Positions 8,182 to 43,137 of a stretch of DNA of 50,922 nt are shown here, in pieces (the first letter of the stretch is position 1; the number at the start of each line of letters is the position of its first letter). The notes beneath the pieces are model-generated. The model did no database searches and was not told the origin of the DNA. It saw only the letters and a program-made list of their open reading frames with translations. The DNA lies in NCBI GenBank assembly GCA_022729915.1, contig DZBP01000004.1, positions 1 through 50,922 of the forward strand, given 5' to 3'. This DNA is from Draconibacterium orientale. GTDB lineage: Bacteria > Bacteroidota > Bacteroidia > Bacteroidales > JAIFNL01. Both the position numbers and the translations under genes were made by a program.

Positions 8182-8268
8182 AAATTAAATTATTTTATAA
8201 AATAACGTTTATTTTAAAATTAAAAAACAGATAAAAAAGTAAGATAAAAACGCCAGATTAAAAAAAAA

Positions 8269-9252: not shown

Positions 9253-9423
9253 TTTAAACAACATATACATTTAAAAAATTGATAATTAACTATTTAAAGT
9301 AAAAAAAATAATTAAAATTGATAAATATTAAACACAAAAAAAACAACAAATGAACTATTTTGATAAAATAATTCAATCCCATTTTAGAAACAAAACCAAG
9401 ATACAATTGTATAATCTAAGGGA

Positions 9424-9996: not shown

Positions 9997-10103
9997 ACTT
10001 GGAAATTAAAAAAAAGAACCCTGAAATACGAAGTAAATTTTCAGGCAAAAGAAAATTAATTTCCAATTCTAAAACAGTTATTAAGTTTAAGAATTTTGCA
10101 AAT

Positions 10104-11132: not shown

Positions 11133-11175
11133 ATTAATTATTTATTTTTTTTGAAAAAATCAAATACCTGAAAAA

Positions 11176-12177
11176 TTATGGAATACTTCTCAAAATAGTA
11201 TTCCTCATTAATATTTCAACACCAATAAACAAAAAAGCAAACAGCGCAAAAATTAAATATTCTTCTTTAATGCTGCTAAATTCTTTCACGTCTATTTTCG
11301 ATTTTTCTAGTTTATCTATTTCAGTATAAATTTCAGCAAGTCCTTTGGTGGTTGTAGCCCTAAAATACTTACCGTCAGTAATTTGTGAAATTTCTTTTAA
11401 AGTTTTCTCATCAATTTTAACTTCAACTTGTTGATATTGAATGCCAAAAGGCGTTTGAAATGGATAAGGTGCAGTTCCAATTGTACCGACACCAATAGTG
11501 TAAACCCTTATACCAAAGGTTTTTGCAATGTCAGCAGCCGAAAGCGGCGCAATATCACCTCTATTATTTTCACCATCAGTAAGTAAAATTACTACTTTGC
11601 TAATTGCTTCACTGTCTTTCAAACGATTAACAGCGTTTGCAAGTCCCATTCCTATTGCAGTGCCATCTTCAATCATTCCACTTTCAATATTCTTAAAAAG
11701 ATTTATAAGAATAGCATGGTCTGTGGTTAATGGGCTTTGCGTGAAACTTTCGCCGCTAAAAACAACTAAACCTATCCTATCGAGTTGTCTGCCCGAAATA
11801 AATTTTATAGCAACTTCTTTTGCAGCCTCTAATCGGTTGGGTCTCAAGTCTTCTGCTAGCATACTACTCGAAATATCCAAGGCAAGCACAATATCAATTC
11901 CTTGAGTAGTTTCGTTTTGCCAATTATCAAATGATTGAGGTCGGGCAATAGCAAATACAAGGGTTACGATTGCCATAACTCTCAAAATAACAAGCACATA
12001 ACGCAAATAAAACTTATAACTCTTTCCCAAGCTTTCAAATGGTTTCAAAGTTGAAAACCGCACTGATGCTTTCAAGCTAGAATGCTTAAAAAAATAATAA
12101 ACAGCCATTGGTATTAAAACCAACAAAAGATAAAATAATTCGGGATTTTCAAAAGTTATTCTATTCCAAAATTCCAT
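11176..12177 (-). CDS. batA: BatA VWA-domain protein
   Basis: ARPQ, DISSSM MIDAS, DGTAIGMGL, LLTDGENN; start taken at MEFWN. Confidence 0.94.
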   Translation of the reverse strand: MEFWNRITFENPELFYLLLVLIPMAVYYFFKHSSLKASVRFSTLKPFESLGKSYKFYLRYVLVILRVMAIVTLVFAIARPQSFDNWQNETTQGIDIVLALDISSSMLAEDLRPNRLEAAKEVAIKFISGRQLDRIGLVVFSGESFTQSPLTTDHAILINLFKNIESGMIEDGTAIGMGLANAVNRLKDSEAISKVVILLTDGENNRGDIAPLSAADIAKTFGIRVYTIGVGTIGTAPYPFQTPFGIQYQQVEVKIDEKTLKEISQITDGKYFRATTTKGLAEIYTEIDKLEKSKIDVKEFSSIKEEYLIFALFAFLFIGVEILMRNTILRSIP

Positions 12178-12239
12178 AGTTAAATTTCTTTTTTTGTAAT
12201 TAAAATTTAGTGCTAAAAAAATGAAAAAAAAACTAAATA

Positions 12240-13208
12240 TCAAGTATTTATTGTTTTAACATTTTCCGAAATCAAATTGGTTTCTTTAGTTTGTTGCACA
12301 AAATTTAGTGTTTTAGAAAAAGCCAAATCATTTTCATCTGGCAATGGTTCAGATTTTGCAAATTTAGCTAAATCGGCATAAGAAAAGATTAGTCGCAACT
12401 CGCTTATTCTATCAGGCTGAATGTCAGTAATTTTCATACAAGCGTCGATAGTTTCAGAACTTGTTTGTTCGGTTGTACTAATTTTGTATCTGTTTTCGAT
12501 GTATTCACGCAAAATATCAGTCAATTCGGTATAATATTGCTTTACATTACCAGATTGCCAAAGTTTTTGTAACTTCAATTTTTCAAGTTTTTCAATTGCA
12601 ATAATATGGAAAGGAATCGCTTTTTTTGGCTTTTCTGTTTGAATTTCAGACGTTTTTTTGCGCCAACGTGTAAAATACAAAACAAGTAAAACAATAGCTA
12701 CGATAGAAATAAATCCGCCAATCAACCAATACTTGTATTCTTTAATAAACTCCTTGAAAGTTAAAGGAGTATCATAAACTGTATAAATATCTTTGACTGA
12801 TTTTTCAGTTGTATCAACCACAATTGTATTTACTTTCAAAAGCAAATCATTTGTACGTAAACTATCTCTTCCATTGGCAAGAAAAACAAAAGGTGGAATT
12901 ATATAATTACCTGAATCAAATGAAGTTACAATAATTTCTTGAGAAAGTAAATAGGTTGAATTTGCTTTTGAAAAAGCGGTATCAATTTCGCCAATTTCAA
13001 CAATTTCAATGCCTTTAACAATTGAATCTTGAAAAATAGGAAATTTAATAGCCTGAACAGCATAAACACTTGCTTGAAGTGTTATTTTTGCTTGCTTACC
13101 TATAACTATTTGTTTGCTATTTATAGAAGCTTTTACTTCTATTTTCTGAGCGTAAGCTGAAAATAATGCAAAATAAAAAATTCCTAAAAATAATATTTTT
13201 TTTATCAT
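12240..13208 (-). CDS. Conserved bat-operon membrane protein (BatD-like Ig domain + TM + helical C-terminus)
   Basis: TSFDSG, KQYYTELTDILREYIE, ADLAKFAK; lies between DUF58 and batA. Confidence 0.85.
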   Translation of the reverse strand: MIKKILFLGIFYFALFSAYAQKIEVKASINSKQIVIGKQAKITLQASVYAVQAIKFPIFQDSIVKGIEIVEIGEIDTAFSKANSTYLLSQEIIVTSFDSGNYIIPPFVFLANGRDSLRTNDLLLKVNTIVVDTTEKSVKDIYTVYDTPLTFKEFIKEYKYWLIGGFISIVAIVLLVLYFTRWRKKTSEIQTEKPKKAIPFHIIAIEKLEKLKLQKLWQSGNVKQYYTELTDILREYIENRYKISTTEQTSSETIDACMKITDIQPDRISELRLIFSYADLAKFAKSEPLPDENDLAFSKTLNFVQQTKETNLISENVKTINT

Positions 13209-13214
13209 ATTTTT

Positions 13215-14084
13215 TTATCTACTTTTAAACATTTGCATCAAAGGTTTCACATAATCCTGATGAGTAAATAACTCGGCAAAACTAATACCTCTTTTTTTGA
13301 GAACAGTTTTAAGTTCGCTATTTTTCATCATTCTATATTTTTTAAATTGCTTTTGAACTAATTTATCGGAAGTGTCAATCCATTGATATTGACCCGATTC
13401 AGCATCTTTCATCTTAACGAGTCCTATATCAGGAAGTTCAATTTCGCGCAAATCGGTAACTTTCAAGGCAATTAAATCGTGCTTGTAACTAGCTATTTGC
13501 AAAGCTTTTTCGTAGTTTTCATCTTCAAAGTCGGAAATCAAAAAAGCAGTGCACCTTTTTTTAATTACATTGGTAAAATACTTTAGACCTTCTTCTAAAT
13601 TTGTGCCTTTACTTTCTGGAGAAAAATCAATTAACTCTCTAATAATGTGAAGTATATGAGATTTCCCTTTTTTAGGCGGAATAAATTTTTCAATTTTATC
13701 TGAAAAAAAGATAACGCCTACTTTGTCGTTATTTTGAATAGCTGAAAATGAAAGAGTTGCAGCAATTTCAGTAATTAACTCTCGTTTAAACATAAGTTTG
13801 CTTCCAAATTCACCCGAACCACTAACGTCAATTAGCAGAACCACAGTCATTTCTCTTTCTTCTTCAAAAACTTTTACGAAAGGATTTTTATAGCGCGCAG
13901 TTAAATTCCAATCGATGTTGCGAATATCATCACCGTATTGATATTCACGCACTTCACTAAAAGTCATACCACGCCCTTTAAAAGCTGTGTGGTATTCGCC
14001 AGCAAATACTTCGCGTGATAATCCTTTGGTTTTAATTTCAATTTTGCGAACTTTTTTTAATAGTTCGCTTGCTTTTTCTGCCAT
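13215..14084 (-). CDS. DUF58 domain protein
   Basis: FKGRGMTFSEVREYQYGDDIRNIDWN, FEEERE, ISDF. Confidence 0.95.
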   Translation of the reverse strand: MAEKASELLKKVRKIEIKTKGLSREVFAGEYHTAFKGRGMTFSEVREYQYGDDIRNIDWNLTARYKNPFVKVFEEEREMTVVLLIDVSGSGEFGSKLMFKRELITEIAATLSFSAIQNNDKVGVIFFSDKIEKFIPPKKGKSHILHIIRELIDFSPESKGTNLEEGLKYFTNVIKKRCTAFLISDFEDENYEKALQIASYKHDLIALKVTDLREIELPDIGLVKMKDAESGQYQWIDTSDKLVQKQFKKYRMMKNSELKTVLKKRGISFAELFTHQDYVKPLMQMFKSR

Positions 14085-14169
14085 TTTATTTCAATTAAGA
14101 ATCATTAAAAATTGAAAACATTTATTCAATTCGCACTAATTCAATGCTTTTGTTGAAATTACAAAAATA

Positions 14170-15162
14170 CTAAGGTACTTCAACAGCATTTAAAATTTCG
14201 CTAATGATTTCTTCACTTGTAATATTCTCAGCTTCAGCCTCATAGGTTAATCCAATACGGTGTCGCAATACATCATGAGCAATAGCACGAATATCTTCGG
14301 GCAAAACGTAACCTCTACGCTTAATAAATGCGTAAGCTTTAGCAGCTTTAGCCAAATTAATGCTAGCACGTGGCGAACCACCAAAATTGATAAGTTCCTT
14401 GAATTTAGCTAATCCGTATTCTTCGGGATTTCTAGTAGCAAAGACAATGTCAACAATATATTTCTGGATTTTTTCGTCCATATAAACCTCTTTTACAGCA
14501 TCACGAGCACGTAAAATATCTTCTGGTTTTATAACTGAGTTAGCTTTAGGAAAGGATTTCATTAAATTTGCCTTGATAATTTCTCTTTCCTCCTCTTTTT
14601 TAGGATAAGTAATTATCACTTTTAGCATAAATCTATCCACTTGCGCTTCTGGCAAAGGATATGTTCCTTCTTGCTCAATTGGGTTTTGAGTAGCCATTAC
14701 CAAAAAAGGTTCTTCAAGTTTATAAGTTTCTTCTCCTATGGTAACTTGCTTTTCTTGCATGGCTTCTAAAAGTGCCGATTGTACCTTAGCCGGAGCACGG
14801 TTTATCTCATCGGCAAGAACAAAATTTGTAAAAATTGGACCTTTTTTTACAACAAATTCTTCCTTTTTTTGCGAATAAATCATGGTACCCAAAAGATCGG
14901 CAGGTAAAAGGTCGGGGGTAAATTGAATACGACTAAAATCAACGCTAATGGTTTGCGCAAGTGTATTGATAGCCAAAGTTTTAGCCAGTCCAGGAACACC
15001 TTCCAGCAAAATATGACCACCCGTAAGTAAACCTATCAAAAGGCTCTCTGTCAAGTGTTTTTGCCCCACAATCACTTTATTCATTTCCATGTTCACCATA
15101 TCTACAAAAGCACTTTCCTTTTGTATTTTCTCATTAATTTCACGAATATCAACTGATTCCAT
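14170..15162 (-). CDS. moxR: MoxR family AAA+ ATPase
   Basis: Walker A GVPGLAKT, RIQFTPDLLPAD, Walker B LADEINRA, ATQNPIEQEGTYPLPEAQVDRF. Confidence 0.97.
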   Translation of the reverse strand: MESVDIREINEKIQKESAFVDMVNMEMNKVIVGQKHLTESLLIGLLTGGHILLEGVPGLAKTLAINTLAQTISVDFSRIQFTPDLLPADLLGTMIYSQKKEEFVVKKGPIFTNFVLADEINRAPAKVQSALLEAMQEKQVTIGEETYKLEEPFLVMATQNPIEQEGTYPLPEAQVDRFMLKVIITYPKKEEEREIIKANLMKSFPKANSVIKPEDILRARDAVKEVYMDEKIQKYIVDIVFATRNPEEYGLAKFKELINFGGSPRASINLAKAAKAYAFIKRRGYVLPEDIRAIAHDVLRHRIGLTYEAEAENITSEEIISEILNAVEVP

Positions 15163-15538: not shown

Positions 15539-16894
15539 ATGTTAAGAAAAATAAAAACATTTGTTCAAAACAATTCTTTATTTGAAACAAACGATAAAAT
15601 ATTATTGGCACTAAGCGGTGGAATTGATTCAATTGTATTGTTGGATTTACTACAAAAAATGAACTGCAACTTTGCAGCCGCTCACTGCAATTTTAACTTA
15701 CGAGGCGAAGAATCAGACAGCGATGAAGCTTTTGTAACTAGTTTATGCGAGAAAAGAAATATCCGTTTATTTAAAATTTCTTTTGCTACACAAACTTACG
15801 CCAATGAAAAAAAAATATCAATTCAAATGGCAGCTCGCGAATTAAGATACAATTGGTTTGAAAAAATATTAAACGATAATCAATTAAAATACATTGCTTT
15901 AGCGCATCATTCAGGCGACGTTGTAGAGACATTTCACATCAATTTGAGTAGAGGAACCGGAATTAAAGGTATAAGTGGAATAAAGGCAAAAACAGGCAAT
16001 TTAATTCGACCATTACTTTTTGCAACTAGGCAAGAAATAATTGATTATCAAACATGTAATCAATTAACTTACAGAGAAGATAGTAGCAATTCGTCAGTAA
16101 AATATGCTCGCAACAAGATACGGCACGAAATTATTCCAAACTTTGCAAAAATAAATCCAGCTTACAACCAAAATATACTAAAAAGTATAGAAAATTTGCA
16201 CGAAGTAGAAAAAATTTATAACCAACAAATAGAAGAAAAACGCAAAGAAATAGTAAAATATGACAATGCATTGTGCAAAATTGATATTACTAAATTACTA
16301 AATACGGCAGCTCCAAAAACATTTCTATATGAGTTTATAAAAGAATTTGGGTTTGAAAGTGAAATTCTAGCACAAATATTTGAATCAATTAATAATCAAT
16401 CGGGTAATGAATTTTTTTCTGAGAATTTCATTCTTTTAAAAAATAGGAATGAATTTGTAATATCAAAAAAAGAAAACAGGCAAAAAGTAGAAGTTTTAAT
16501 TGATGAAAATTGTTCGGTTTTAAAAATAAACGAGTTAAATTTATTTTTATCAAAAATAGACAAAAATGAGAATTTTATTCTAACAAAAAAACAAGAAATA
16601 GCATTGCTTGACTTTGAAAAAATTGAATTTCCAATAAAGTTAACAAACTGGGAAGCAGGAGATTATTTTTTTCCATTAGGAATGAAGAAACGAAAAAAAC
16701 TGTCTGATTTTTTTATTGACAACAAGTATTCTCTTTTTGAAAAGCAACAACAAATAATTTTAAAATCAAACGATAAAATCGTTTGGATACTTGGAAAACA
16801 GATAGATGACCGATACAAAATAAGTGAAACAACAAAAAAAATCTTACAAATTGAAATAAAAACTGATTTTTTTATAAATTTGCAAGAAAAATAA
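15539..16894 (+). CDS. tilS: tRNA(Ile)-lysidine synthetase
   Basis: PP-loop ALSGGIDS, AHCNFNLRG, ARELRY, RPLL, EDSSN, RNKIRH; TilS C-terminal KKLSDFFID. Confidence 0.97.
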   Translation: MLRKIKTFVQNNSLFETNDKILLALSGGIDSIVLLDLLQKMNCNFAAAHCNFNLRGEESDSDEAFVTSLCEKRNIRLFKISFATQTYANEKKISIQMAARELRYNWFEKILNDNQLKYIALAHHSGDVVETFHINLSRGTGIKGISGIKAKTGNLIRPLLFATRQEIIDYQTCNQLTYREDSSNSSVKYARNKIRHEIIPNFAKINPAYNQNILKSIENLHEVEKIYNQQIEEKRKEIVKYDNALCKIDITKLLNTAAPKTFLYEFIKEFGFESEILAQIFESINNQSGNEFFSENFILLKNRNEFVISKKENRQKVEVLIDENCSVLKINELNLFLSKIDKNENFILTKKQEIALLDFEKIEFPIKLTNWEAGDYFFPLGMKKRKKLSDFFIDNKYSLFEKQQQIILKSNDKIVWILGKQIDDRYKISETTKKILQIEIKTDFFINLQEK

Positions 16895-27030: not shown

Positions 27031-28443
27031 TTATTTAACGTGATCCATCTCTACAATCATTGCAACAACAGTTTTTGATTTCGATTTTGCTTCGAAAGAA
27101 ATAACGCTACCTTCAGAATAATCAATTTCTTCGTTGTTGAATAATTTTGTACCCAAAGCACCTTTTATACGTTCGGCAAATGTTCCGTAACCCGATTCCA
27201 CATCGCCTATAATCTGATAGAAATCAAGAGGTTCTGTTGAATACAGCACACACATATAGTCCGTACCAACGGTATTATCCATTTGAATGTAATGCTGCTC
27301 GTCGGGCAAAGCCACTTCGTTGTCAGTATAGTTTAATGCCGGACTAATTAGTTTGTCATATGGAAACACTGGAAAGATTTTTTGTGTAGCGTCAGTTCCC
27401 AATGCATAAACGTAGGCAGGTTCAGAATTTCGGATAAAAATACGGAAACGAGTTCCTGATTTGTACGAATCTTTCATTTTGAAAACATTGCCTTTTCTAG
27501 TAGCATTCATAGAAACTCCGGTTCCAAGTTCGTAACGAATAGCACCTTTTAGCGATTTTTCTTCTGTTACTACTTTATGTGGGTATCCGCTAGCCATATT
27601 TCCGATTATTTCGTATGCATACTTAGTAAAATCGGCAAAAGTAGAATATTTTATCCAAATATATCCATTATTGCCCCACTCTACTCCCCAAGAGTTTTGT
27701 ATTAAAAATGAACCTCCGGCTTTGTTGTCATCGTAACCTACTACACACATTGCGTGCCCACCGTAGTCGCCAAGGTGAGTTTCGGTGGGTTCCCAAACAT
27801 CTACCGCTTGGTAAAAAGAGTTTGGAACTAGCATTCCGATAACTACCGGATTGTTTTCAGAAAGACTTTTTTTAACAGCCTGAATTTTAAATGCATTTCC
27901 ATCGGTAAGTCCAAAAAGTTTAGCATAATCGGTAATCCGATAATTTTTGGCAGTTGAAAGTAAAGTGCTGTTGATGTTATCGGGACAATTAATGCTCAAA
28001 TCAGAATATCTAACAGCACCTACTGTTTTTAGAATGTTCAAAGCATCGCTCAACGACGACCCCCAAGCACAACTTGCATCACCGTCATCTTTAATGTGTT
28101 TGTAAAGAAATCCGGGAGAAAAGGCATTTTCTGTAATTTTTGCTTTGTCGGTCAAATTTAGCGTTTTGGCTTCAACAATTGTAAGTGCGCAATAAGCACT
28201 AGCCCAACCAACGCAAGTAGAATAACTTCCTTGGCTTAAAGGTGAAGGAGTATAATCAACGAGCGATGCACTTGAAGGCAAACTATTTCCGTACATACTT
28301 CGCACCAAAGGTGCTTTCATTTGAGTGGATTGATAGCCTGTATCGTCATATTTCAAACCTCTTTTGTATTTAGTAGTATCTTTTTGAGCAAAAGAAACGC
28401 TAAAAAGCAAGAGTAGCATCAATAATATGCTAATTTTTTTCAT
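27031..28443 (-). CDS. Secreted papain-like C1 cysteine peptidase with C-terminal DUF4384-like domain
   Basis: SQGSYSTCVGWA (Gln/Cys), GGHAMCVVGY (His), QNSWG (Asn); C-terminal YKSGTRFRIFIRN..AYVY..FP; signal peptide. Confidence 0.9.
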   Translation of the reverse strand: MKKISILLMLLLLFSVSFAQKDTTKYKRGLKYDDTGYQSTQMKAPLVRSMYGNSLPSSASLVDYTPSPLSQGSYSTCVGWASAYCALTIVEAKTLNLTDKAKITENAFSPGFLYKHIKDDGDASCAWGSSLSDALNILKTVGAVRYSDLSINCPDNINSTLLSTAKNYRITDYAKLFGLTDGNAFKIQAVKKSLSENNPVVIGMLVPNSFYQAVDVWEPTETHLGDYGGHAMCVVGYDDNKAGGSFLIQNSWGVEWGNNGYIWIKYSTFADFTKYAYEIIGNMASGYPHKVVTEEKSLKGAIRYELGTGVSMNATRKGNVFKMKDSYKSGTRFRIFIRNSEPAYVYALGTDATQKIFPVFPYDKLISPALNYTDNEVALPDEQHYIQMDNTVGTDYMCVLYSTEPLDFYQIIGDVESGYGTFAERIKGALGTKLFNNEEIDYSEGSVISFEAKSKSKTVVAMIVEMDHVK

Positions 28444-28475
28444 TTTATATGTTTTTAATTTTTTTTAAGTAAAGT

Positions 28476-28748
28476 AAAAATCAATGGTTTTGATGTTTAT
28501 AAATAGTTTCCTAAAAATAGTGTTAGAAATAAAATGCTGTCATTTTGAAAAAAAATCAAAATTTCAATCCGCCTAACCGAGTTTTTTTAGTCTGATAAAT
28601 AAGCACTTACAAGTTTATCGGACAAGCGGTTGTAACCGTTTTTTGGGTCATTTTCTTTTTCTTACACTAAGCTATTAACAAAAATGCTTGTTCTAAATTT
28701 AAGAACGTACTGTTAGTTAAAGCTAAATTTCATAAACCATTGATTTTT
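28476..28748. repeat. Perfect 15-bp inverted repeat pair bounding the intergenic region
   Basis: AAAAATCAATGGTTT (28476-28490) and AAACCATTGATTTTT (28734-28748). Confidence 0.7.
28518..28669. mobile_element. MITE-like non-coding element with terminal inverted repeats
   Basis: Left end TAGTGTTAGAAA vs right end (reverse complement) TAGTGTAAGAAA, 11/12 identical; internal dyad TCTGATAAA...TTTATCGGA; no ORF. Confidence 0.5.
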
Positions 28749-28760
28749 TTAAAAATTTAT

Positions 28761-31289
28761 TTATTTATTAAAGAAGAAATCTTCAAAAATAGATGAATTG
28801 TCCCAAGGAACTTGTTTGCCATCAGATTTTTTATATACATTTCGTCTTACTTCTTTGAAAACATTTTCAATAGATTCGCCTTTTCGTTCAAGAGCTGTCA
28901 AAAATTCTTGTGTATAAAGTCCATTTGAGCCAGAACCATCGGCAGCAACCGAACCGGGTGAGGTAGCATAAGCAATAAATGTGCCTTGTGGTGCGTTGGT
29001 TTGCGCCAAACCGCCTCCCCCCGACGAGCGTGTTGCACTAGCAAAAGGATTGTCTCTACAAGCATCTAATATTATGATATTCATATTATTACGAGCATAA
29101 TCCATCTCGCCGAGTAGTCGTTTGAGATTAACAGCTTCAAGTTCAACGTCTTGTTGTTTTTGAATATCTGCACCTATTGGAATTAAATAGTTTTCGCCAT
29201 CGACTTGCATTCCGTGTCCGGCATAAAAGAACAATCCTGTTCCTTTTTCAGCAGCAAGTTTTTCGCCAAAAGTACGGAAGGCTTTTTTCATATCTGCCTG
29301 ATTTTGGTTCAAAAAAAGCATCACTTCAAATCCAAGTCCTTCTAATTTTTTGGCAATAGCTTTGGCATCGTTTTCGGGGTTTCTCAAAGGCGAAGCGGCA
29401 TAGTTGCTATTTCCAATAATCAAAGCCAACCGTTTTTCGGAACTAGAACTTACGTTTTCAAAAGTTACGGTTCTCTCTTCGGTAGTTGTAGAGCCTGTTT
29501 GGTTTGAAACAGTTACTTTTATTTTATTATCGCCACTTGTGAGTTGAATTTCGCGTTCGATTGTATAATCGCAAGCACTGCTAACTACAGAAAATCCGCG
29601 ATTTGTAGAAGTTTGTTCTTTTCCATTAACATAAACAACGGCTGTAACGGGAGTTGATGATTCTACACACACTTTAATTTTGTAAACATTTGAGCTAGTT
29701 GTAGATGTGTAATATTCAGGAGTTAACCAAGTAACCATTGGTCCTTTGTTTTCTTCTTCGATAGGACCTATATAGTTGTTATCTTTCCATTTACCTGATT
29801 TTGAAGTTCCATCGGTATAATACATAGTTCCAATGCCGGTGTAAGTTCCGTCAACCCAGTCGCCAATATATTTAACGCCGCTTGCCCAAATATAAGTTCC
29901 TTTTCCGGTGCGGTTATCATCAATCCAATTGCCAATATACTTATCGCTATTTGCATAATAAAAAGTACCTTCGCCATTGTATTTTCCACTTTTCCAGTTT
30001 CCAACGTATTTTGCACCGCTTTCAAAGGTATAAGTTCCGTAACCATTATCGCAATTACCAGTAATGCAACCAATATTTCCTTGAGATTTGCCTACAAAAT
30101 TATCTTTTTCCCAAATTCCACTTTGTACAGTACCATCGGCATAATACATAGTTCCCTCTCCGTGGAAATAGCTATCTTGCAACGAACCAACGTATTTTTG
30201 TCCGTTTCTGTAAACAAAAGTACCTTGTCCTGTGAGTTTATCCATTACGTAATTGCCTTTGTAATAATCGTATTCTGAATCGGGGTGATAATTGTAAGTT
30301 CCAAAACCATGTTTGTAATCGTCTTTCCACTCGCCTGAGTATTTTGCTCCATTTACAAAGTAATTGGTTCCTTGACCGTTGCGCTTGCCACTTTCCCAAT
30401 TTCCTTCATATTTTTCGCCCGATTCCCATTTGTAAACACCCCAACCAGATTCACAATCTCCTGAAACACAACCAAATGAATTATTATCATAGGTAGTTTT
30501 GTTGCCTTTATATACGTCATTTTCCCACAAACCATTTTCTATTGTGCCATCGGTGTAATACATTGTACCTTGCCCTGTAAAATAATTTTCTACAAAATCT
30601 CCCACGTATTTTTGTCCGTTTTTCCAATAAAATGTACCTTTACCGTTCATTTTATTGTCCACCCAATCGCCTGTGTACGAACCATATTCCGATTCATTTT
30701 TGTAGATATAGGTACCATAACCAATTTTATTGTCATCAACCCAATCGCCATCGTATTTTGCGCCATTTGCCCAAGTATTTGCACCTCGTCCATTGCGCAT
30801 TCCGTTGCTCCAATTTCCTTCGTACCTTTCACCATCTTCCCAGACATATACGCCATATCCACTAGAGCAATCACCTGTAATGCAGCCGCTTGTAACATTG
30901 TCATTTGACAAATAAGTCCCGTCCTTCCAAGTTCCTTTTTTTATAGTTCCATCGGCATAAACATAAGTAGCTTCACCGTGCTGTTTGCCATTGAGCCAAC
31001 CTCCGGTATATTTATCGCCGCTAGCCCAGTAATAAGTACCTTGACCGTACATCACATTATTTTGGTATTCACCAATATATTTGGCACCATCAGAATAGTA
31101 ATAAGTACCAAAACCATGACGTAAACCAGCTTTCCAGTCGCCAGTATATTTATCGCCTTTCCATTGTCCGGGTCCCCAAATATAAGTTCCGTAACCATCT
31201 TCACAGTCGCCTGAAATACAACCACTTTGCTGTGCAAAAAGGTTCAGAGAAAGGAAGAATATTAAATTGAGTATTATAATTTTCTTCAT
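28761..31289 (-). CDS. Secreted MORN-repeat protein with Ig-like domain and C-terminal caspase-like (C14) peptidase
   Basis: Many G.kY.G.w.ng...G.G..y repeats; RLALIIGNSNY, FFYAGHG (His), ILDACR (Cys), QVPW; signal peptide. Confidence 0.93.
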   Translation of the reverse strand: MKKIIILNLIFFLSLNLFAQQSGCISGDCEDGYGTYIWGPGQWKGDKYTGDWKAGLRHGFGTYYYSDGAKYIGEYQNNVMYGQGTYYWASGDKYTGGWLNGKQHGEATYVYADGTIKKGTWKDGTYLSNDNVTSGCITGDCSSGYGVYVWEDGERYEGNWSNGMRNGRGANTWANGAKYDGDWVDDNKIGYGTYIYKNESEYGSYTGDWVDNKMNGKGTFYWKNGQKYVGDFVENYFTGQGTMYYTDGTIENGLWENDVYKGNKTTYDNNSFGCVSGDCESGWGVYKWESGEKYEGNWESGKRNGQGTNYFVNGAKYSGEWKDDYKHGFGTYNYHPDSEYDYYKGNYVMDKLTGQGTFVYRNGQKYVGSLQDSYFHGEGTMYYADGTVQSGIWEKDNFVGKSQGNIGCITGNCDNGYGTYTFESGAKYVGNWKSGKYNGEGTFYYANSDKYIGNWIDDNRTGKGTYIWASGVKYIGDWVDGTYTGIGTMYYTDGTSKSGKWKDNNYIGPIEEENKGPMVTWLTPEYYTSTTSSNVYKIKVCVESSTPVTAVVYVNGKEQTSTNRGFSVVSSACDYTIEREIQLTSGDNKIKVTVSNQTGSTTTEERTVTFENVSSSSEKRLALIIGNSNYAASPLRNPENDAKAIAKKLEGLGFEVMLFLNQNQADMKKAFRTFGEKLAAEKGTGLFFYAGHGMQVDGENYLIPIGADIQKQQDVELEAVNLKRLLGEMDYARNNMNIIILDACRDNPFASATRSSGGGGLAQTNAPQGTFIAYATSPGSVAADGSGSNGLYTQEFLTALERKGESIENVFKEVRRNVYKKSDGKQVPWDNSSIFEDFFFNK

Positions 31290-36277: not shown

Positions 36278-36336
36278 CTGTTTTTCTAAAATAAATCTCT
36301 TAAATTTATTTTCAATAAAAGTATATTTCATTGATT

Positions 36337-38634
36337 ATGAAAAATTTAAAGCAACTATTTTTTTTATTTACTTTTCTTGTAATCGCTTCCAGTTTAATAG
36401 CACAAACGAAGTTGATTGCAAAAATTTGCGATTATTCTACAAAGAAACCTATTCATAATGTGCATATTACAAATTTAAGTAAAAAAATAGTAACAAGTAC
36501 AGACGATAATGGAATTGCACAAATAAATTTAGCTGTAAATGAAAAAAATGCACTCAAAATTAGCCATATAGGCTACAAAGATACAATAATCAACTTTTTT
36601 TCAAAAACAGATTTAAACGAATTAACTATTGAATTACAAATTCTTAGCATAAAGATGCCAGAAGTTTTTGTTTCCGCATCACGTAAATTGCAATTAAAAA
36701 ACCAAACAACAGGAAGTAGCGACATTATAACACGTAAAAATATTGAAATACAGCCAATTACAAATATAGATAATATACTTCAAACCATTTCAAATGTCTA
36801 TGTAAACAGAAGCTGGGGAATTTTCTCAAAAAATGCAAGCGTAACAATGCGTGGAATGGACGGAAAAGATCGGGTATTAATTTTGCTCGACGGAATTCCG
36901 ATGAATAAATCTTCAGGAGGTTCAATCAACTGGCATCTAATAAACCCAGAACAAATAGAACGTATAGAAATAATAAAAGGTCCTGCTTCAGCAATTTATG
37001 GAAATAATGCGATGAATGGAATTATAAATTTGATAAGCAAAAAACCTTCTGAAAAAATAGATTTTTTTATAAATAATTTCGTTGGTTCTTATAATACATT
37101 AGGTGTCAATTTTTACACAGGCGGAAAGCAAAAATTAGCTGAAAACAATTTTTATTGGACCCTCGATGGCTTTTATAGACAAGGCGATGGTTATTTTTAT
37201 TTACCTGAAAATATGAGAGATAGCTATGATGCGAAACTATATTTGCTAGAATATAATTCATCAGCAAAAATAGGATATGAGCTAAATAAACAGCAAAAAA
37301 TAGAAATTTCATATGCATACCAGCACGATAAAAGAGGCTCAGGAAAAAAAATTTATATGCCCGATGGTAGTTTCGATAGCTATTCAACTAACTTATCATC
37401 AATAACTTACAATGGAATATTTCAAGAAACAACTTCGACAGTAAGCTTATTTTGGCAAAATGAATTGTACCAAAAACAAAGCGAAAGTATCAATTCGAGT
37501 GGAAACTACAAGCTTTCAGAAAATCCACAAATAAGTAATGATTTTGGCATTTTATCCAGTATTTCAACACAGTTATCAAGCAAGCATAACTTAACCTATG
37601 GATTTGATTATAAGCAAGCTAACCTACATGCTAAAGAAATTTATAAAACCTCTAGTGATTATATAGAACGAAAAGGGAATTTAATTTTTGGTGGAATTTA
37701 TGCTCAAGACGAATGGTTTTTGACCACAAAATGGCTTTTTACAACAGGTTTCAGGCTCGATTATTCAAAATTTTACAATGGAAACCTTCTAGTAACTAAC
37801 CCAACTAAAGAAACCGGTTTTTTAAGCAATATAGACCAAAATTTTCCTCAAAATGATTGGTTTGCTTTTAGCCCAAAATTTAGTCTAAAGTACTTGTATT
37901 CAGGCAACTTTAATAATTATATCTCAATAGCAAAAGGCTTCAGACCTCCTTCAATAGATGACTTATGTAGCTCACGAAAAATCACAAAAGGTTTTAAACA
38001 AGCAAATCCGAGCTTATTGCCTGAATATCAATATACACTCGAATACGGACTTCAGCTAAAACCAAGCAAAGATTTTAAAATATCTTCAGCTTTATATTTT
38101 ACAAAAGGCTTTGATTTTCAATATTTTGTAGGCACTGGAGATTCAATTGATACGGGCGGAAGTAGCTTAAAACCAATTTTGCGCCGCGAAAATATTTCCA
38201 AAGTAAACGTAATAGGATTTGAAATAGATTTGGCTTACACGCCAAGCAATTTGATTGAAATAAAAGCAAACTACACCTACAATTCGGCAAAGATTATAGA
38301 ATTTAACCAGATAAATAAATACGAAATAAGCCTAAAAAATAATTATTTAATTGAAACTCCTTCTCAGCAAGCTTTTTTTGGAATCAATTCGCGCAATAAA
38401 TGGCTAAATATGAGCCTCATGTACAATTTTATAGGCGAACAATGGGCTGACGAGGAAAATTCTCAAATTATAAATTCATATAATACAATAGACATAGCTT
38501 TTTCAAAAAAAGTTGCCAAAAATATTGAATTATCTATTGATATACAAAACATTACAAATGAAAAATTTATCGATAAAAAAGGTTACGAATCACCCGGAAG
38601 TTTTTTTGTCTTCAATCTTTCTTATAGGCTATGA
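36337..38634 (+). CDS. TonB-dependent receptor (BtuB/CirA-like) with N-terminal carboxypeptidase-regulatory-like domain
   Basis: TonB box EVFVSASR, plug MRG..VLILLDG, IERIEIIKGPASAIYG, NPSLLPE, IQNITN, C-terminal barrel strand. Confidence 0.93.
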   Translation: MKNLKQLFFLFTFLVIASSLIAQTKLIAKICDYSTKKPIHNVHITNLSKKIVTSTDDNGIAQINLAVNEKNALKISHIGYKDTIINFFSKTDLNELTIELQILSIKMPEVFVSASRKLQLKNQTTGSSDIITRKNIEIQPITNIDNILQTISNVYVNRSWGIFSKNASVTMRGMDGKDRVLILLDGIPMNKSSGGSINWHLINPEQIERIEIIKGPASAIYGNNAMNGIINLISKKPSEKIDFFINNFVGSYNTLGVNFYTGGKQKLAENNFYWTLDGFYRQGDGYFYLPENMRDSYDAKLYLLEYNSSAKIGYELNKQQKIEISYAYQHDKRGSGKKIYMPDGSFDSYSTNLSSITYNGIFQETTSTVSLFWQNELYQKQSESINSSGNYKLSENPQISNDFGILSSISTQLSSKHNLTYGFDYKQANLHAKEIYKTSSDYIERKGNLIFGGIYAQDEWFLTTKWLFTTGFRLDYSKFYNGNLLVTNPTKETGFLSNIDQNFPQNDWFAFSPKFSLKYLYSGNFNNYISIAKGFRPPSIDDLCSSRKITKGFKQANPSLLPEYQYTLEYGLQLKPSKDFKISSALYFTKGFDFQYFVGTGDSIDTGGSSLKPILRRENISKVNVIGFEIDLAYTPSNLIEIKANYTYNSAKIIEFNQINKYEISLKNNYLIETPSQQAFFGINSRNKWLNMSLMYNFIGEQWADEENSQIINSYNTIDIAFSKKVAKNIELSIDIQNITNEKFIDKKGYESPGSFFVFNLSYRL

Positions 38635-39000
38635 TAACTTTTCCATTTTTTTCATCAAATTTCCAAATACTTCATCTAAAGCATTTTGAATGAAAGCATC
38701 ATGCTTGCGATGAAATTCGTCAAAAGCTTCTATTATTGCAATACCTTGTGGCGTTAAAATAGTCTGGCCTCCATCTTTGCCTCCTCTCTGTCGCTGAATA
38801 ATAGGAAAACCTAATGTTTGCTCAATTTCATTGAGGTTATCCCAAGTTTTGCGGTAAGTCAAATTTTCTTTCTTAATTGCATCTATGATAGAACCTGTTT
38901 CGTTAATGGTTTTCAACAAATTACACTTTCCTTCTCCCAAAATACCTTTACTATCTTCAGCTTCGAGCCAAATTTTAAAATTTATTCTGAATTTATTCAT
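38629..39000 (-). CDS. ModE N-terminal-type winged-helix regulator, without TOBE domains
   Basis: KIWLE..LGEGK..LLKTINETGSI..YRKTW..RQRGGKDGGQTILT; only 123 aa. Confidence 0.88.
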   Translation of the reverse strand: MNKFRINFKIWLEAEDSKGILGEGKCNLLKTINETGSIIDAIKKENLTYRKTWDNLNEIEQTLGFPIIQRQRGGKDGGQTILTPQGIAIIEAFDEFHRKHDAFIQNALDEVFGNLMKKMEKLS

Positions 39001-39036
39001 TATATTGATAAATTTTTATAATAACAATAAAAAATA

Positions 39037-39792
39037 TTAAGGTAAATTTTTAATTCGTATTTCGATAGATTTGTCATCGCTCAGCAATTTCAAAAGCTCA
39101 TTTGTATCTGTTTTTCCAAAATGGTATGGATAAAGAATTTTGGGTTTAAACATACGTGCAGAATTTGCACACATTTCAACACTCATGGTATAAGGTAAGT
39201 TCATTGGCAAAAAAGCAACGTCAATATCTTTGAAATCAGACATTTCAGGAATATCCTCCGTATCGCCAGCTACATAAATCCGTTTATCTGCAAAAGTTAA
39301 AATATAGCCATTTCCATTTCCTTTTGGGTGGTAATGCTCGCCGTTAGAACGTTTATTTACAATATTATAGGCAGGAACTGTTTCTATTTTAAACAATTCT
39401 AAATCGTAATTTTGTCCATTTTGCAAAATAATAATACCGTTTTTTTTATTCAACAAATTGGCACAAATTTGTGTGATTACAAATTTTGTACCTTCTTTCT
39501 TTGTTTTATTCAAAGCCAATGTATCAAAATGATCGCCATGCTCATGTGTAATAAGCACAATATCAGCCTTTGGCAATAAACTATAATCAAATTCCCGTTC
39601 GGTTGGGTCTATCTGAATTACTTTATTTTTATACTCAAACATCAAGCTTGCATGCCCAACAAAGTGCATAATTAAATTACCTTCTGAGGTTTTAATAGTA
39701 TCTTTTTCTATTACTTTTTGGCAGTAAATATTTTCCATAAATGCGAAAAATAAAATAAATAAAAAAGTAGATATAATTAATATTTTTTTCAT
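39037..39792 (-). CDS. Secreted MBL-fold metallo-hydrolase (UlaG/UPF0173-like)
   Basis: GHAS, IDP, THEHGDH, VAGDT, PYH; signal peptide. Confidence 0.9.
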   Translation of the reverse strand: MKKILIISTFLFILFFAFMENIYCQKVIEKDTIKTSEGNLIMHFVGHASLMFEYKNKVIQIDPTEREFDYSLLPKADIVLITHEHGDHFDTLALNKTKKEGTKFVITQICANLLNKKNGIIILQNGQNYDLELFKIETVPAYNIVNKRSNGEHYHPKGNGNGYILTFADKRIYVAGDTEDIPEMSDFKDIDVAFLPMNLPYTMSVEMCANSARMFKPKILYPYHFGKTDTNELLKLLSDDKSIEIRIKNLP

Positions 39793-39813
39793 AAGTTATA
39801 TTTTTATATTAAT

Positions 39814-40485
39814 TTATTGAGTTTGTTTTTTTGCTTGATGATTTAAAATTACATCAAAATAAGTTGTATCCCAAAAATTGGAAAATTGAGAATAATTAAC
39901 TTCCTTATTTTCAAATTTATAAATATCGGTTTGAAAAACATCTTTAAAAACGTGCCAAATAATTTCGGCACAATACATTTGAGTCGAATCCTTCATGTCG
40001 AAGCTATAATCAAATGGCACTTTTGTACTTAAATAGTACAAACCACGCTGGCTCACTTTGTACAAATCAGAAGTATCGCATTTATTAAATCGAACAATAA
40101 TCACCGAGTTTTGATGACTGGCTGCAACGTAATCATCAAAATTTTGTTTCTGAACACCTTCAAATGTAAAATAAGAACTTGATTCAGAATGAATTACACA
40201 CAAACTATCTGATGTTTTTTGAATAATTCCGCAATGCGAAATTTTATATTTTTCATTAAAAAGATTGACTATATAATCAGAAGCCAGGCCAAAGCCACGT
40301 CGCAAAATTATATCACCATTTTTTAATTTTTGTTTTTCTTGCAATGAAAAAATATAAGAATTAGTCCTTTCCTTTGATAATTCATTTTTATCGTAAAAAT
40401 TCCAGAAAATATAAAACAATAAAACTAAAATTACTAAAAAAAAGGAAAAATAAAGGGCAATTTTCTGTATTTTAAAAGCAATCAT
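39814..40485 (-). CDS. YiiX/YebB-like permuted NlpC/P60 cysteine hydrolase, membrane-anchored
   Basis: LKNGDIILRRG, SHCG (His) preceding MYCAE (Cys), PFDY. Confidence 0.88.
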   Translation of the reverse strand: MIAFKIQKIALYFSFFLVILVLLFYIFWNFYDKNELSKERTNSYIFSLQEKQKLKNGDIILRRGFGLASDYIVNLFNEKYKISHCGIIQKTSDSLCVIHSESSSYFTFEGVQKQNFDDYVAASHQNSVIIVRFNKCDTSDLYKVSQRGLYYLSTKVPFDYSFDMKDSTQMYCAEIIWHVFKDVFQTDIYKFENKEVNYSQFSNFWDTTYFDVILNHQAKKQTQ

Positions 40486-40636
40486 TCAATAAAAATTCAA
40501 AAGCAAACACAATTTTAAACGTCAAAATTACAATTTATTATTCAAAAAATTATTTTGTTTAGAAAAAAAAATTTAAAATTTTTATTTATCCAAATTTCTA
40601 GTTTATTTTGCCGAAATGCAAATTTAAACAATTCGA

Positions 40637-41386
40637 ATGGAATTCAACAATTTTTTCTACATAGGAATAGACGATACCGATAATGCAGAGACTCGTGGTA
40701 CTGGCTTTAGAGCTAGACAGTTAGCTGCTATTTTAATAGAAAAAAAATTAGCAGATGTGTTTAGCGTTTCGCGGCATCAATTGTTTTTCGACCCCCGTGT
40801 GCCTTTTACTTCACACAATAGCTCGCTTTGTATAGAATTGAAAGCTAATGATTTAGAAGCACTAAAAGAAGTTTCTAAAAAATTTTTGTTAGAAGTAGCT
40901 GCTGAGGGCTCAGATGTGGGTTTGTGCATTGCCCGAAAAGAAAACATTAGCAACGCCGTTATTGAATTTGGAAAAAAAGCCAAAATAGACCTTGTTACGC
41001 AAAAAGAAGCTTACATTTTAGCCGAAAAAAACCAACTTTATTTGGAAGGGTTAACGGGAACAAAAGATGGAATTATAGGCGCGCTAGCCAGCGTAGGGCT
41101 TAGTTTTTTTGGCAACGACGGCAGATGTGTATGGTTAAAAGGAACCGAATTGCGAGAAATAAAAGGAGTTATGAGCATCAGAGAACTTTTACAACAATCT
41201 AATATTGATGAAGTTACTGATGAAAATGGTTTCACAGTTCCTCAAACAGATTTGCTAATGCTTGATGAATGGCTACGACCAATTTTGAAAAATCACAAAA
41301 AGATTCTAATTATAGAGGAGGTAAAAAATGAAAAATACAAGTGGAAACTTAAACCAAAAGACTTTATCAAAAAGCTTTCAAGTTGA
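40637..41386 (+). CDS. TiaS N-terminal (kinase) domain-like protein of unknown function
   Basis: YIGIDDTD..GTG, RHQL..P.TSHNSS, SDVGLC, DGIIGALASVG resemble the TiaS catalytic domain; too short to contain the OB-fold and Zn-ribbon. Confidence 0.72.
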   Translation: MEFNNFFYIGIDDTDNAETRGTGFRARQLAAILIEKKLADVFSVSRHQLFFDPRVPFTSHNSSLCIELKANDLEALKEVSKKFLLEVAAEGSDVGLCIARKENISNAVIEFGKKAKIDLVTQKEAYILAEKNQLYLEGLTGTKDGIIGALASVGLSFFGNDGRCVWLKGTELREIKGVMSIRELLQQSNIDEVTDENGFTVPQTDLLMLDEWLRPILKNHKKILIIEEVKNEKYKWKLKPKDFIKKLSS

Positions 41387-41903
41387 AAGCATTGCAAGTA
41401 TATTAGAAGTAATAGCCCTCTTTGGGCTGGGTGCTTTAGCTGTTGTTTTGCATATCAAAATGAAAACACCCTTGCACTTGCCCGGACATCACGGATTAGA
41501 GTTCATGGCACTGCTTATGTTAGGTAGATACGCATCAAAAAAGCCAATTGCTTCAACAATTTCGTCTTTGGGAGCAGGATTTATGCTTTTTTTCCCAATT
41601 TGGGCAGGAAAAGATCCTTTTGCAGGCATGATTTATATGCTTCCGGGCTTTATTCTCGATTTTTTGTACTATAAATTAAAAGAAAACCGCAATTTATTGC
41701 TTGTTGCACTAGTTGGCGGCTTATCTTATGCCATAATTCCGATTGTTCGATTTATAATTATGAGTGTAACTGGATTCAAATACGGAGCTTTACTAAGTGG
41801 CTTGGCATATCCTCTTTTTGCATTTACAATGTTTGGCGCACTAGGCAGTCTTTTTGGAGCTTCGCTCATGAAACAAATTCAAAACAAAATACAACAAAAA
41901 TAA
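41328..41903 (+). CDS. Small 5-6 TM membrane protein, ECF S-component-like
   Basis: Almost entirely hydrophobic, 191 aa, LHLPGHHGLEFMA loop; overlaps the upstream gene by 59 nt. Confidence 0.65.
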   Translation: MKNTSGNLNQKTLSKSFQVESIASILEVIALFGLGALAVVLHIKMKTPLHLPGHHGLEFMALLMLGRYASKKPIASTISSLGAGFMLFFPIWAGKDPFAGMIYMLPGFILDFLYYKLKENRNLLLVALVGGLSYAIIPIVRFIIMSVTGFKYGALLSGLAYPLFAFTMFGALGSLFGASLMKQIQNKIQQK

Positions 41904-41994
41904 ATTTTATTAAAAAAGCCCAATTGACTTTTTTTAGCTAACGAGTTGCTAATTTCAGCAATTCGATTTCGACAAACTAAAAAAAATAATAAAA

Positions 41995-42870
41995 ATGAAA
42001 AAAATACATTTATTTATAGCCGCATTTGCTTTATTCATTGCATTTACTAGTTGCAAAAACGACAAAGATTATGGTAATCCAACCATCAGTTTCAAAACAG
42101 AAACCATTTATGTAAGCGATGGTGATAGTCTTTTGGCAGGCGAAAAAGCAAAAATTGGAATTAGTGCCAATTTTAATACCAACGACAATATTACAAATTT
42201 CAAAATCAAATTAAAAACTGATACAGAGGTTATTGCATTGGATTCGGGTATTAATTCGGCTAATTTTGAATACGAATATAAATTAACTAAAACACTAGCC
42301 AATTTAGAAACACTGACATTTACTATTACTGATATAGAAGGACATACTGCCGAAATTTCGCTAGATATTCACTTAAAAGCAATTGAATATGGCGAAATTA
42401 ATTATTACACAAATATTATTTTAGGTGCGCAAAACAATACTACCAATGGTGGTTTTTATAGCTTAAGTAATAATACAATTTATAATAAAACAAATGCTGA
42501 AAATAATCAAGCGCTAATTGATTTAGTCTATTATTACAATAGTAAAAATTCAAACGCACTTAGCTCACCAGCAATGAGTTCTGACGGTGAAGTTACTGGC
42601 GTAGATGTATGGACAACTAAAAACGAAACCGTTTTTGCTGCAGATGCAAACCTAACTATCGCAAAATTTAATGCAATGCAACATGATAGTTTACTGTTAG
42701 TTGCAGCATCGCTAGCTTCTGATGCGTGGAAAGCAAAAGCAAAAGCTCTTGCAGTTGGAAATATTTATTATTTTAAAACACACAGTTCAAAGTTCGGTAT
42801 TTTCAAAGTAAATAGCGTGCAAGGAACTGATGCAGGAACAATCGAAATAGAGCTAAAAGTTCAAAAATAA
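41995..42870 (+). CDS. Hypothetical surface lipoprotein
   Basis: Lipobox FTSC followed by KNDKD (charged export-signal-like); beta-rich two-domain appearance. Confidence 0.82.
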   Translation: MKKIHLFIAAFALFIAFTSCKNDKDYGNPTISFKTETIYVSDGDSLLAGEKAKIGISANFNTNDNITNFKIKLKTDTEVIALDSGINSANFEYEYKLTKTLANLETLTFTITDIEGHTAEISLDIHLKAIEYGEINYYTNIILGAQNNTTNGGFYSLSNNTIYNKTNAENNQALIDLVYYYNSKNSNALSSPAMSSDGEVTGVDVWTTKNETVFAADANLTIAKFNAMQHDSLLLVAASLASDAWKAKAKALAVGNIYYFKTHSSKFGIFKVNSVQGTDAGTIEIELKVQK

Positions 42871-42887
42871 GACTTTACCAATAAAAA

Positions 42888-42921
42888 AAACTTTGCCAAA
42901 ATTAAATTTTTGGCAAAGTTT
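42888..42921. terminator. Intrinsic terminator hairpin
   Basis: AAACTTTGCCAAAA-6 nt-TTTTGGCAAAGTTT 14-bp stem; the longer U-tail is on the minus strand. Confidence 0.75.
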
Positions 42922-43137
42922 CAATATCTAAAAACAAAAAAAATTTCTTATCCCAATTGACTTTTGTTTTCATTAATATCAAATTTAGAACACTTTCTAA
43001 ATAAATACCAAATTAGTACATAAAAAACCAATTTAATTTGAAATATTTTTTATTCTCATTAATTTACTAAAAATAAACATACAACCCTCAAATATACAAA
43101 CATAAAAGAGTCCAATTCTATCTATTTTTGATAAAAA

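Follow-up and report, generated by a model that had tools for sequence, protein, structure and literature searches.

A gene group at positions 36331-42870 of a 50,922-nt stretch of DNA from Draconibacterium orientale (order Bacteroidales; GenBank assembly GCA_022729915.1, contig DZBP01000004.1, positions 1 to 50,922; hereafter the window) was investigated. Its core consists of a TiaS-kinase-like gene (TCKD), a membrane gene (MEM), a lipoprotein gene (LIPO) and a gene for a TonB-dependent receptor (TBDR), accompanied by a short ModE-type regulator (ModE1). We propose, with a probability of roughly 0.6, that this core is an acquisition module for tungsten, taken up as tungstate and possibly also as molybdate, which is repressed by a ModE-family protein and divided into two operator-controlled units. 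It is probably an undescribed bacterial route for acquiring scarce tungsten (or molybdenum). The proposal is built on the gene content and conserved order of the loci, on the folds of MEM and TCKD, on the operator sites, and on a genomic and phyletic link with tungsten and molybdenum enzymes.

Conserved gene order around TCKD and MEM

The content of the window was determined from a listing of open reading frames (ORFs) and from Pfam and NCBIfam scans. All seven genes listed in an initial annotation of this DNA were recovered at their places, and every item was reproduced. On the plus strand, TBDR (36331-38634) encodes 767 residues with a plug (PF07715, 96 bits), a barrel (PF00593, 120 bits) and an N-terminal CarbopepD_reg_2 domain. 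The minus strand carries ModE1 (38629-39000), a winged-helix regulator of 123 residues matching TIGR00637 with 72 bits, a hydrolase of metallo-beta-lactamase (MBL) fold (39037-39792; PF13483, 74 bits) and a C92/YiiX-like, permuted papain-like amidase (39814-40485; PF05708, 30.5 bits). The remaining three genes lie on the plus strand: TCKD (40637-41386; 249 residues with the motif IGIDDTD; TiaS_TCKD E 0.012), MEM (41328-41903; 191 residues with a PGHHG loop), which overlaps TCKD by 59 nt and belongs to no family, and LIPO (41995-42870), a Bacteroidota-specific, surface-type lipoprotein of 291 residues with lipobox cysteine Cys20.

To place these genes in a wider context, one genome per species was scanned for TCKD, and more than 561 loci proved to encode it. 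The best 80 were retained together with flanking sequence, and each of the seven window proteins was used to search the ORFs of 85 loci (these 80 and 5 from relatives). MEM lay adjacent to TCKD in 82 of the 85 loci; the TBDR clade was present in 67, LIPO was present in 63 and ModE in 30. Loci were called Bacteroidota-labelled when their record titles named Bacteroidota groups (n = 65; 15 loci were labelled otherwise, and labels of metagenome-assembled genomes may be wrong), and only loci with sufficient sequence entered each denominator, hence the denominators of 65, 61, 57 and 62. In the Bacteroidota-labelled loci, MEM was 3' of TCKD in all cases (65/65), LIPO followed on the same strand in 58/61, and an orthologous TBDR (E < 1e-50, same strand, downstream) stood directly after LIPO in 55/57. 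A ModE-like gene was found within 1.6 kb in 26/62, often heading the operon. The canonical order is therefore [ModE]-TCKD-MEM-LIPO-TBDR in one co-directional cluster. Because it recurs in 80 independent loci, the arrangement is far beyond chance. The connection between the receptor and the trio TCKD-MEM-LIPO, which the initial annotation had only inferred, was thus borne out when the neighbourhoods were compared: homologues of the trio keep company with this TBDR clade and with ModE. Among the otherwise-labelled loci (Proteobacteria, Chloroflexi and others), MEM was present in 13/15, LIPO in 0/12 and a distant TBDR within 5 kb in 7/12; TCKD-MEM stood beside a TBDR in Proteobacteria-labelled loci and alone in Chloroflexi-labelled ones. 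The overlap of TCKD with MEM, of about 50-80 nt, is shared by the whole family.

The genus of the window, including a sister genome (L006), departs from the canonical order: TBDR has been relocated upstream, ModE is inverted, and two hydrolases are inserted between ModE1 and the divergent promoter. Homologues of the MBL-fold and C92/YiiX proteins were found in 3 of the 85 loci, all from this genus. The two exported hydrolases, which had been counted among the parts of the system, thus represent a genus-specific insertion outside the conserved module. Only 21 and 36 nt separate the two hydrolase genes and ModE1, which are tightly packed on the minus strand, and the hydrolase pair may have come under the divergent promoter of the module. 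When the window's own genome (G000, 3.5 Mb) was searched with a profile of the operon-linked receptors, the window TBDR was its only orthologue of that clade, scoring 956 bits, while the next paralogue reached 245; phmmer comparisons with operon TBDRs reached E values down to 1e-192.

LIPO is less easily placed. Its Cys20 is invariant in 46 homologues, and it has no Pfam family, no sequence relative in the PDB (best E 0.86) and only unnamed Bacteroidota clusters in the Atlas. Further exported proteins accompany the related loci. In 30 of them (e.g., L059:12346-13191), a protein of about 281 residues with a C-terminal sorting domain of the type IX secretion system (T9SS) is encoded directly 3' of TBDR; it may be a secreted capture protein, and no orthologue of it was found in G000. 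In loci labelled outside Bacteroidota (L033, L051, L061, L070; L079, L084), a lipoprotein of about 150 residues is encoded 5' of TCKD-MEM. It shares homology (E 1e-13 to 1e-4) with Oxidored_molyb-like segments in proteins encoded nearby; in one of these proteins, such a segment is fused to a TupA-like periplasmic binding protein (PBP) domain. Homology of LIPO to the T9SS-sorted protein, to a neighbour of 353 residues or to the small non-Bacteroidota lipoprotein was rejected, with hhalign probabilities of at most 1.6%.

A TiaS-type kinase domain and a protein of S-component fold

Models of TCKD and MEM were compared with PDB structures by structural alignment and by Foldseek. The TCKD model (pLDDT, or predicted local distance difference test, 91.5) matched TiaS, the archaeal tRNA(Ile2) agmatidine synthetase (PDB 3amt/3amu), with Z 21.9 and a root-mean-square deviation of 1.9 over 154 residues (3amt), while the next match reached only Z 7.6; Foldseek gave the TiaS match an E value of 4e-10, and the family scans agreed (NCBIfam methanogenesis marker 11, E 2e-12; TiaS, E 3e-9). 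The protein is composed of a TiaS kinase domain (residues ~1-155) and a C-terminal domain of about 90 residues (~158-249), for which no Atlas match was found, the structural lists being filled by the N-terminal domain. Matches to HPPK-like structures (Z ~7) were treated as noise. In addition to the fold, TCKD shares with TiaS the motif GIDDTD...T. Its residues D12, D13, D15 and T22, which are invariant in 33 sequences, pair in the profile alignment with D8, D9, D11 and T18 of TiaS, which we take to be the Mg/ATP-binding acids and the autophosphorylated threonine, respectively.

In contrast to TiaS (420-447 residues), TCKD ends at residue 249 and has no tRNA-binding domains. Only the TCKD domain was recognised by Pfam, whereas true TiaS matches carry PF01336, PF23783 and PF08489, so that the OB, zinc-ribbon and DUF1743 domains are lacking. 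Moreover, TCKD is bacterial, is always paired with a membrane protein, and shares the window with TilS, which it thus does not replace in AUA decoding (15539-16891; TIGR02432, 183.9 bits against a cut-off of 93.6; PF01171 and TilS_C). We conclude that TCKD is not a tRNA enzyme. Its family is large, with 2,921 relatives at E <= 0.001 (90% identity clusters), almost all unnamed, and that of MEM has 526 clusters at 50% identity. Together they span records labelled with several phyla, and the annotation is almost only hypothetical. Among the carriers, isolates are named in the records of Perlabentimonas gracilis M08_MB (L080), Lentisalinibacter sediminis C23 (L049), Bradyrhizobium sp. Pha-3 (L055) and Lentimicrobium sp. 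L6 (P0080).

At E <= 0.1, neither Pfam nor NCBIfam offered a family for MEM, and its fold was recognised from the model (pLDDT 93, built from 54 homologues). When this model was aligned by VIA-align with 48,161 PDB representative chains, ranks 1-15 were all S-components of energy-coupling factor (ECF) transporters, with Z from 14.9 to 8.0, whereas unrelated chains did not exceed 7.4. The best matches were YkoE-type 5edl (Z 14.9), ThiT (12.6) and RibU (11.9), PanT and BioY were also listed, and lower matches included NikM 4m5c (8.8), CbiM 5x3x (8.6), BtuM 8ovv (8.1) and FolT (8.0). Foldseek agreed weakly, again with 5edl as the best match (E 9e-3). The suggestion that the membrane protein resembles an S-component is therefore upheld by a six-helix S-component fold in the model. 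As for a driving module, the initial annotation had seen no ABC (ATP-binding cassette) ATPase or EcfT in the window, and the Pfam scan of the other 36 ORFs agrees. EcfT/CbiQ (PF02361) was also found in none of five carrier genomes, which include G000 and one single-contig genome at 99% completeness. Considering this absence together with the fold, MEM is a protein of S-component fold without an ECF module.

The most conserved stretch of MEM, LPG[H/K/R][H/Q/N]G.E, directly follows helix 1 and presumably, by analogy with solved S-components, covers the binding pocket as the extracytoplasmic L1 lid. In every sequence displayed, position 54 in this loop is H, K or R, and such a residue would be compatible with an anionic cargo. 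No fusion of TCKD and MEM was found among the longer TCKD relatives (only two true TiaS) or among the 150 best MEM representatives, all of 106-220 residues, and each of these results is a weak negative.

Predicted operators and the tungsten/molybdenum context

ModE1 matches TIGR00637 (E 3e-20) below the cut-off of 98.5 bits and covers no more than positions 22-94 of the full-length model (263 positions); it has no Mop/TOBE domain. From word and dyad enrichment, the dyad CGATATG-N10-CATATCG was obtained, which occurred (<=3 mismatches) in 26 of 50 operon fronts against 14 of 230 control intergenic regions. Eight of the copies had no mismatch, and most of these eight lay 31-46 nt ahead of the first start codon. 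As an operator of G000 itself this form was rejected, being not enriched at <=2 mismatches (6 sites; shuffles 4-18). Instead, G000 uses the variant half-site of CGAATTG-N10-CAATTCG, which was spotted by inspection. With <=1 mismatch, four sites of this variant occur in the 3.5 Mb of the genome, while ten shuffles gave 0, 0, 0, 1, 0, 2, 0, 0, 0 and 0. Two of the four, each with one mismatch, lie in the gene group: O1 (40612-40635; CGAAATG-N10-CAATTCG) ends 1 nt before the start codon of TCKD, and O2 (41942-41965; CGAGTTG-N10-CAATTCG) is 30 nt upstream of LIPO; neither dyad is assigned a strand. Both are kept in the sister genome L006, where O2 is perfect and in the same place. The third, a perfect copy, precedes a P5C (L-glutamate gamma-semialdehyde) dehydrogenase gene on contig C284 (C284:16482-16505), and the fourth, within a sufD-like ORF, was taken as chance.

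In the 80 loci (1.09 Mb), the degenerate dyad CGAWWTG-N10-CAWWTCG (<=1 mismatch) gave 71 sites, of which 26 were located within 1 kb upstream of TCKD and 33 in the gap between MEM and LIPO (59 together). According to a hand tally, 65 of the 71 flank ModE, TCKD, MEM, LIPO, TBDR, an aldehyde:ferredoxin oxidoreductase (AFOR), WtpA, P5C dehydrogenase, MoaA, Ppnp or the T9SS-sorted protein. From this placement we derive two operator-controlled units, [ModE]-TCKD-MEM and LIPO-TBDR, in one tungsten/molybdenum regulon. ModE1 is the protein that would bind these predicted operators.

Several further genes touch on this regulon. A second short ModE paralogue (ModE2), 39% identical to ModE1, lies beside WtpA on another contig of G000 (C228:17363-18809, L089), and dyads resembling the CGATATG type, with an 11-nt spacer, precede both ModE2-WtpA and the single AFOR gene (C250:10239-10263, L090). 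This arrangement suggests that G000 uses two variants of the operator with its two ModE paralogues. The P5C dehydrogenase (C284:14814-16505, L091; TIGR01236, 766 bits), the gene with the sole perfect operator copy in G000, recurs in 12 related loci beside the ModE/TCKD operon, often divergently, and may be a tungsten-independent aldehyde dehydrogenase co-regulated with tungsten supply. In 10 related loci (e.g., L050:7167-7448), a PpnP-like small cupin of 93 residues is encoded directly upstream of ModE, between AFOR and ModE, and might serve the Mop-less regulator as a ligand-binding partner.

The neighbours of the module were identified by clustering all adjoining ORFs and scanning representatives against families. 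AFOR lies directly upstream in 8 loci, and genes for synthesis of the molybdenum cofactor (Moco) are frequent: MoeA in 10 loci, MoaA in 10, MoeB-like ThiF in 8, MoaC in 6 and MoaB/MOSC in 5, as well as MoaD. Directly 3' of TBDR, several loci have an ABC transporter whose binding protein passes the cut-off of the WtpA (tungstate) equivalog (291.9 bits against 242.75). A formate-dehydrogenase-like molybdopterin enzyme is next door in Gammaproteobacteria-labelled loci, and PBP-like regulators and TupA/WtpA-like binding proteins are found in Chloroflexi-labelled ones. G000 itself has one AFOR, MoeA with MoaA, MoaC with MoaB/MOSC, and a WtpA (355.6 bits against a cut-off of 355) beside the second ModE paralogue, with WtpB- and WtpC-like genes that are both below their cut-offs. 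None of the seven window proteins matches a binding protein, permease or ATPase of WtpABC, TupABC or ModABC, the Wtp genes of G000 being elsewhere. Hence molybdenum and tungsten, the substrate class that the initial annotation had named first, is the one that the genomic context supports, and nothing seen points to its nucleoside or cobamide candidates.

The same association was observed in a survey of 201 genomes of the order, whose cross-tabulations were read by hand from printed tables; because related genomes are not independent, the counts are patterns, not statistics. TCKD was present in 34 genomes (two of them, G067 and G200, with weak or fragmentary matches), AFOR in 87, MoaC in 95 and WtpA in 70. 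All 34 TCKD genomes had AFOR, against 53 of the 167 others, and 33 of the 34 had MoaC, the exception being an 87%-complete genome; TCKD occurred in none of the 15 genomes with MoaC and without AFOR. WtpA was found in 21 of the 34, and in 10 of those 21 it lies within about 16 kb of TCKD. Two high-quality genomes with TCKD, AFOR and MoaC (G069 and G118) had no SBP_bac_11 or PBP_like_2 match, that is, no ModA/WtpA/TupA- or PstS-type binding protein by these models. This pattern, judged from two Pfam models only, hints that the module is able to stand alone.

Proposed function, alternatives and known systems

Based on these results, we hypothesized the following mechanism, which retains as a conjecture the chain of capture, import and ATP-dependent activation in the initial annotation. 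In the outer unit, LIPO would capture the substrate at the cell surface and TBDR would move it over the outer membrane by TonB energy. In the inner unit, MEM would act as a solitary carrier of S-component type, binding the substrate under the L1 lid and taking it over the inner membrane, and the translationally coupled cytoplasmic TCKD would stand in for the missing EcfT/EcfA, using ATP to render this step irreversible. The ATP might serve to trap or activate the cargo chemically or to reset the MEM carrier. When the cell is metal replete, the short ModE repressor would bind the dyads before TCKD and LIPO, switching both units off. A bolder version, in which TCKD-MEM is a new class of ATP-coupled importer whose TiaS-type kinase replaces the ECF module, activates the tungstate leaving the S-component (as phospho- or adenylyl-tungstate) and feeds MoeA, seems to us improbable. 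Were it true, the module, with LIPO-TBDR, would be the first TonB-dependent tungstate pathway and would contain the first dedicated metal-activation step in tungsten-cofactor synthesis.

Some observations weigh against the acquisition of tungstate by this module. The promoter of the relocated TBDR in the window showed no operator, so the link of this receptor to the module rests on orthology, not regulation. Metal sensing is left unexplained, since ModE1 is without the molybdate-binding Mop domains. MEM is not needed as the sole inner-membrane route for tungstate, because G000 and 21 of the 34 carriers hold WtpABC-type genes. S-components usually carry organic vitamins, and the only TCKD substrate known to us is a nucleobase carbonyl, both of which would fit an organic cargo better than an oxyanion. 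Finally, AFOR and MoaC overlap heavily (80 genomes have both), and considering also the non-independence of the genomes, specificity for tungsten versus molybdenum is based on small numbers.

For some of these reasons, namely the coexistence of WtpABC in G000 and most carriers and the organic substrates of the S-component and TCKD precedents, a serious rival is that the same module imports an organic molecule related to tungsten or molybdenum, for instance a pyranopterin (cofactor or precursor) or the complex of a metal with a metallophore. MEM would then be a vitamin-type carrier and TCKD a trapping kinase, as in Pnu-type carriers, whose cargo is trapped by a kinase, and free oxyanion would be handled by WtpABC. 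The small lipoprotein 5' of TCKD outside Bacteroidota, homologous to Moco-domain-like (Oxidored_molyb-like) segments, would suit this proposal, as would the structural matches of TCKD to the pterin pyrophosphokinase HPPK if they were not at noise level. We nevertheless consider it unlikely. Genes for de novo Moco synthesis (MoaA, MoaC and MoeA) are found in the same clusters and in G000, no metallophore biosynthetic genes were seen near the loci by neighbour clustering and scans, CbiM and NikM show that S-components are able to carry bare metal ions, and H, K or R at position 54 of MEM suits any anion. A second serious rival, less likely still, is that TCKD-MEM does not transport at all and is a membrane-anchored device for sensing or cofactor maturation. 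It might, for example, supply the metal sensing missing from the Mop-less ModE or use ATP to select tungsten over molybdenum before MoeA, with uptake left to LIPO-TBDR (with WtpABC). Such a role would account for a ModE1 without ligand domain and for the separation of TCKD-MEM and LIPO-TBDR into two operator-controlled units; it would also agree with the Chloroflexi-labelled loci, which have TCKD-MEM without TBDR beside WtpA-type ABC genes and PBP-like regulators, and with the invariance in TCKD of the threonine that is presumably autophosphorylated in TiaS. However, the S-component fold is known only from carriers, G069 and G118 are without a ModA/WtpA/TupA-type binding protein by the two Pfam models, and a ModE gene is near in only 26/62 loci.

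There is also the reading that the neighbourhood arose by chance, with TBDR an ordinary iron, haem or B12 receptor and the trio serving another pathway. Three opposite-strand genes do separate the window TBDR from the trio, the receptor has no operator, and its best family matches are models of haem, siderophore and B12 receptors. But it falls far below the cut-off of every substrate-specific NCBIfam model (best, TonB-hemin, 180 bits against 316.85; BtuB equivalog, 123 against 599.7), its PDB matches span the plug only, and the same clade stands directly 3' of LIPO in 55/57 loci, the window gene being the only orthologue in G000. An unrelated iron, haem or B12 receptor is thus essentially excluded, and the reading as a whole is very improbable.

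If the acquisition of tungstate by the module is accepted, its nearest functional analogue is the TonB receptor BtuB with the solitary S-component BtuM, which serve cobalamin (compare PMC6072759). Like that pair, the module has an S-component-fold carrier without EcfT/EcfA in a Gram-negative cell, behind a TonB-dependent receptor. Unlike it, the module shows no sequence relationship, has a tungsten/molybdenum rather than a cobalamin context, and adds two parts, a dedicated lipoprotein of surface type and a TiaS-kinase-like partner that is obligatory and translationally coupled. For a TonB receptor with a solitary S-component, the kinase partner is unprecedented and the metal context is new. 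Nearest to it as functional neighbours stand WtpABC, TupABC and ModABC, which are ABC importers of oxyanions controlled by ModE (compare PMC5517513); the regulon logic and genomic company are the same, and WtpABC is often in the same cluster. In contrast to them, the module has no ABC parts and adds an outer-membrane TonB step. CbiMNQO and NikMNQO likewise use an S-component-type protein for an inorganic ion (NikM and CbiM are among the MEM matches), but they require CbiQ/O (T/A) modules, and the CbiQ family occurs in none of the five carrier genomes. The known route through type VI secretion system substrates is similar in providing a dedicated outer-membrane path for a molybdenum or tungsten oxyanion with an extracellular binding protein; its proteins are unrelated, the module having a lipoprotein and, in 30 other loci, the T9SS-sorted protein. 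Tungsten insertion based on MoeA1/MobB is described in PMC13197769, the consulted portion of which contains no TonB or TiaS term.

By its components, the module is thus neither an ECF transporter (no T/A), nor does it contain a TiaS (no tRNA domains), a full ModE (no Mop) or a receptor of a named TBDR subfamily. In literature searched on TonB/tungstate/molybdate, TiaS/tungsten and WtpA/TupA, mostly judged from titles, no description of this system and no TonB-dependent outer-membrane step for tungstate was found. To our knowledge, only ABC importers (ModABC, TupABC and WtpABC) have been described for tungstate and molybdate, and we know of little work that addresses the outer-membrane passage of these oxyanions at environmental pico- to nanomolar levels. 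If the proposal is correct, anaerobic Bacteroidota would possess a TonB-dependent route for scavenging tungsten, the TiaS kinase fold would have a second, non-tRNA function, and there would be a third way of running an S-component, neither ECF-driven nor truly solitary. A testable ModE-type regulon comprising the operator, AFOR, WtpA and the uptake genes would also be defined.

No riboswitch or other RNA family reached the gathering threshold in the window or in 8 loci. A terminator-like palindromic hairpin with a 15-bp stem (42887-42922; called on the minus strand, the strand being uncertain) lies just 3' of the LIPO stop codon. Elsewhere in the window, an aerotolerance-type operon of BatA-BatD, MoxR AAA, DUF58 and VWA proteins occupies 6397-15162 on the minus strand. 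At 27034-31289, an 842-residue MORN-repeat protein with a terminal caspase (C14) domain adjoins a papain-like protease with DUF4384, and an ankyrin-repeat protein of 485 residues is encoded at 2824-4278.

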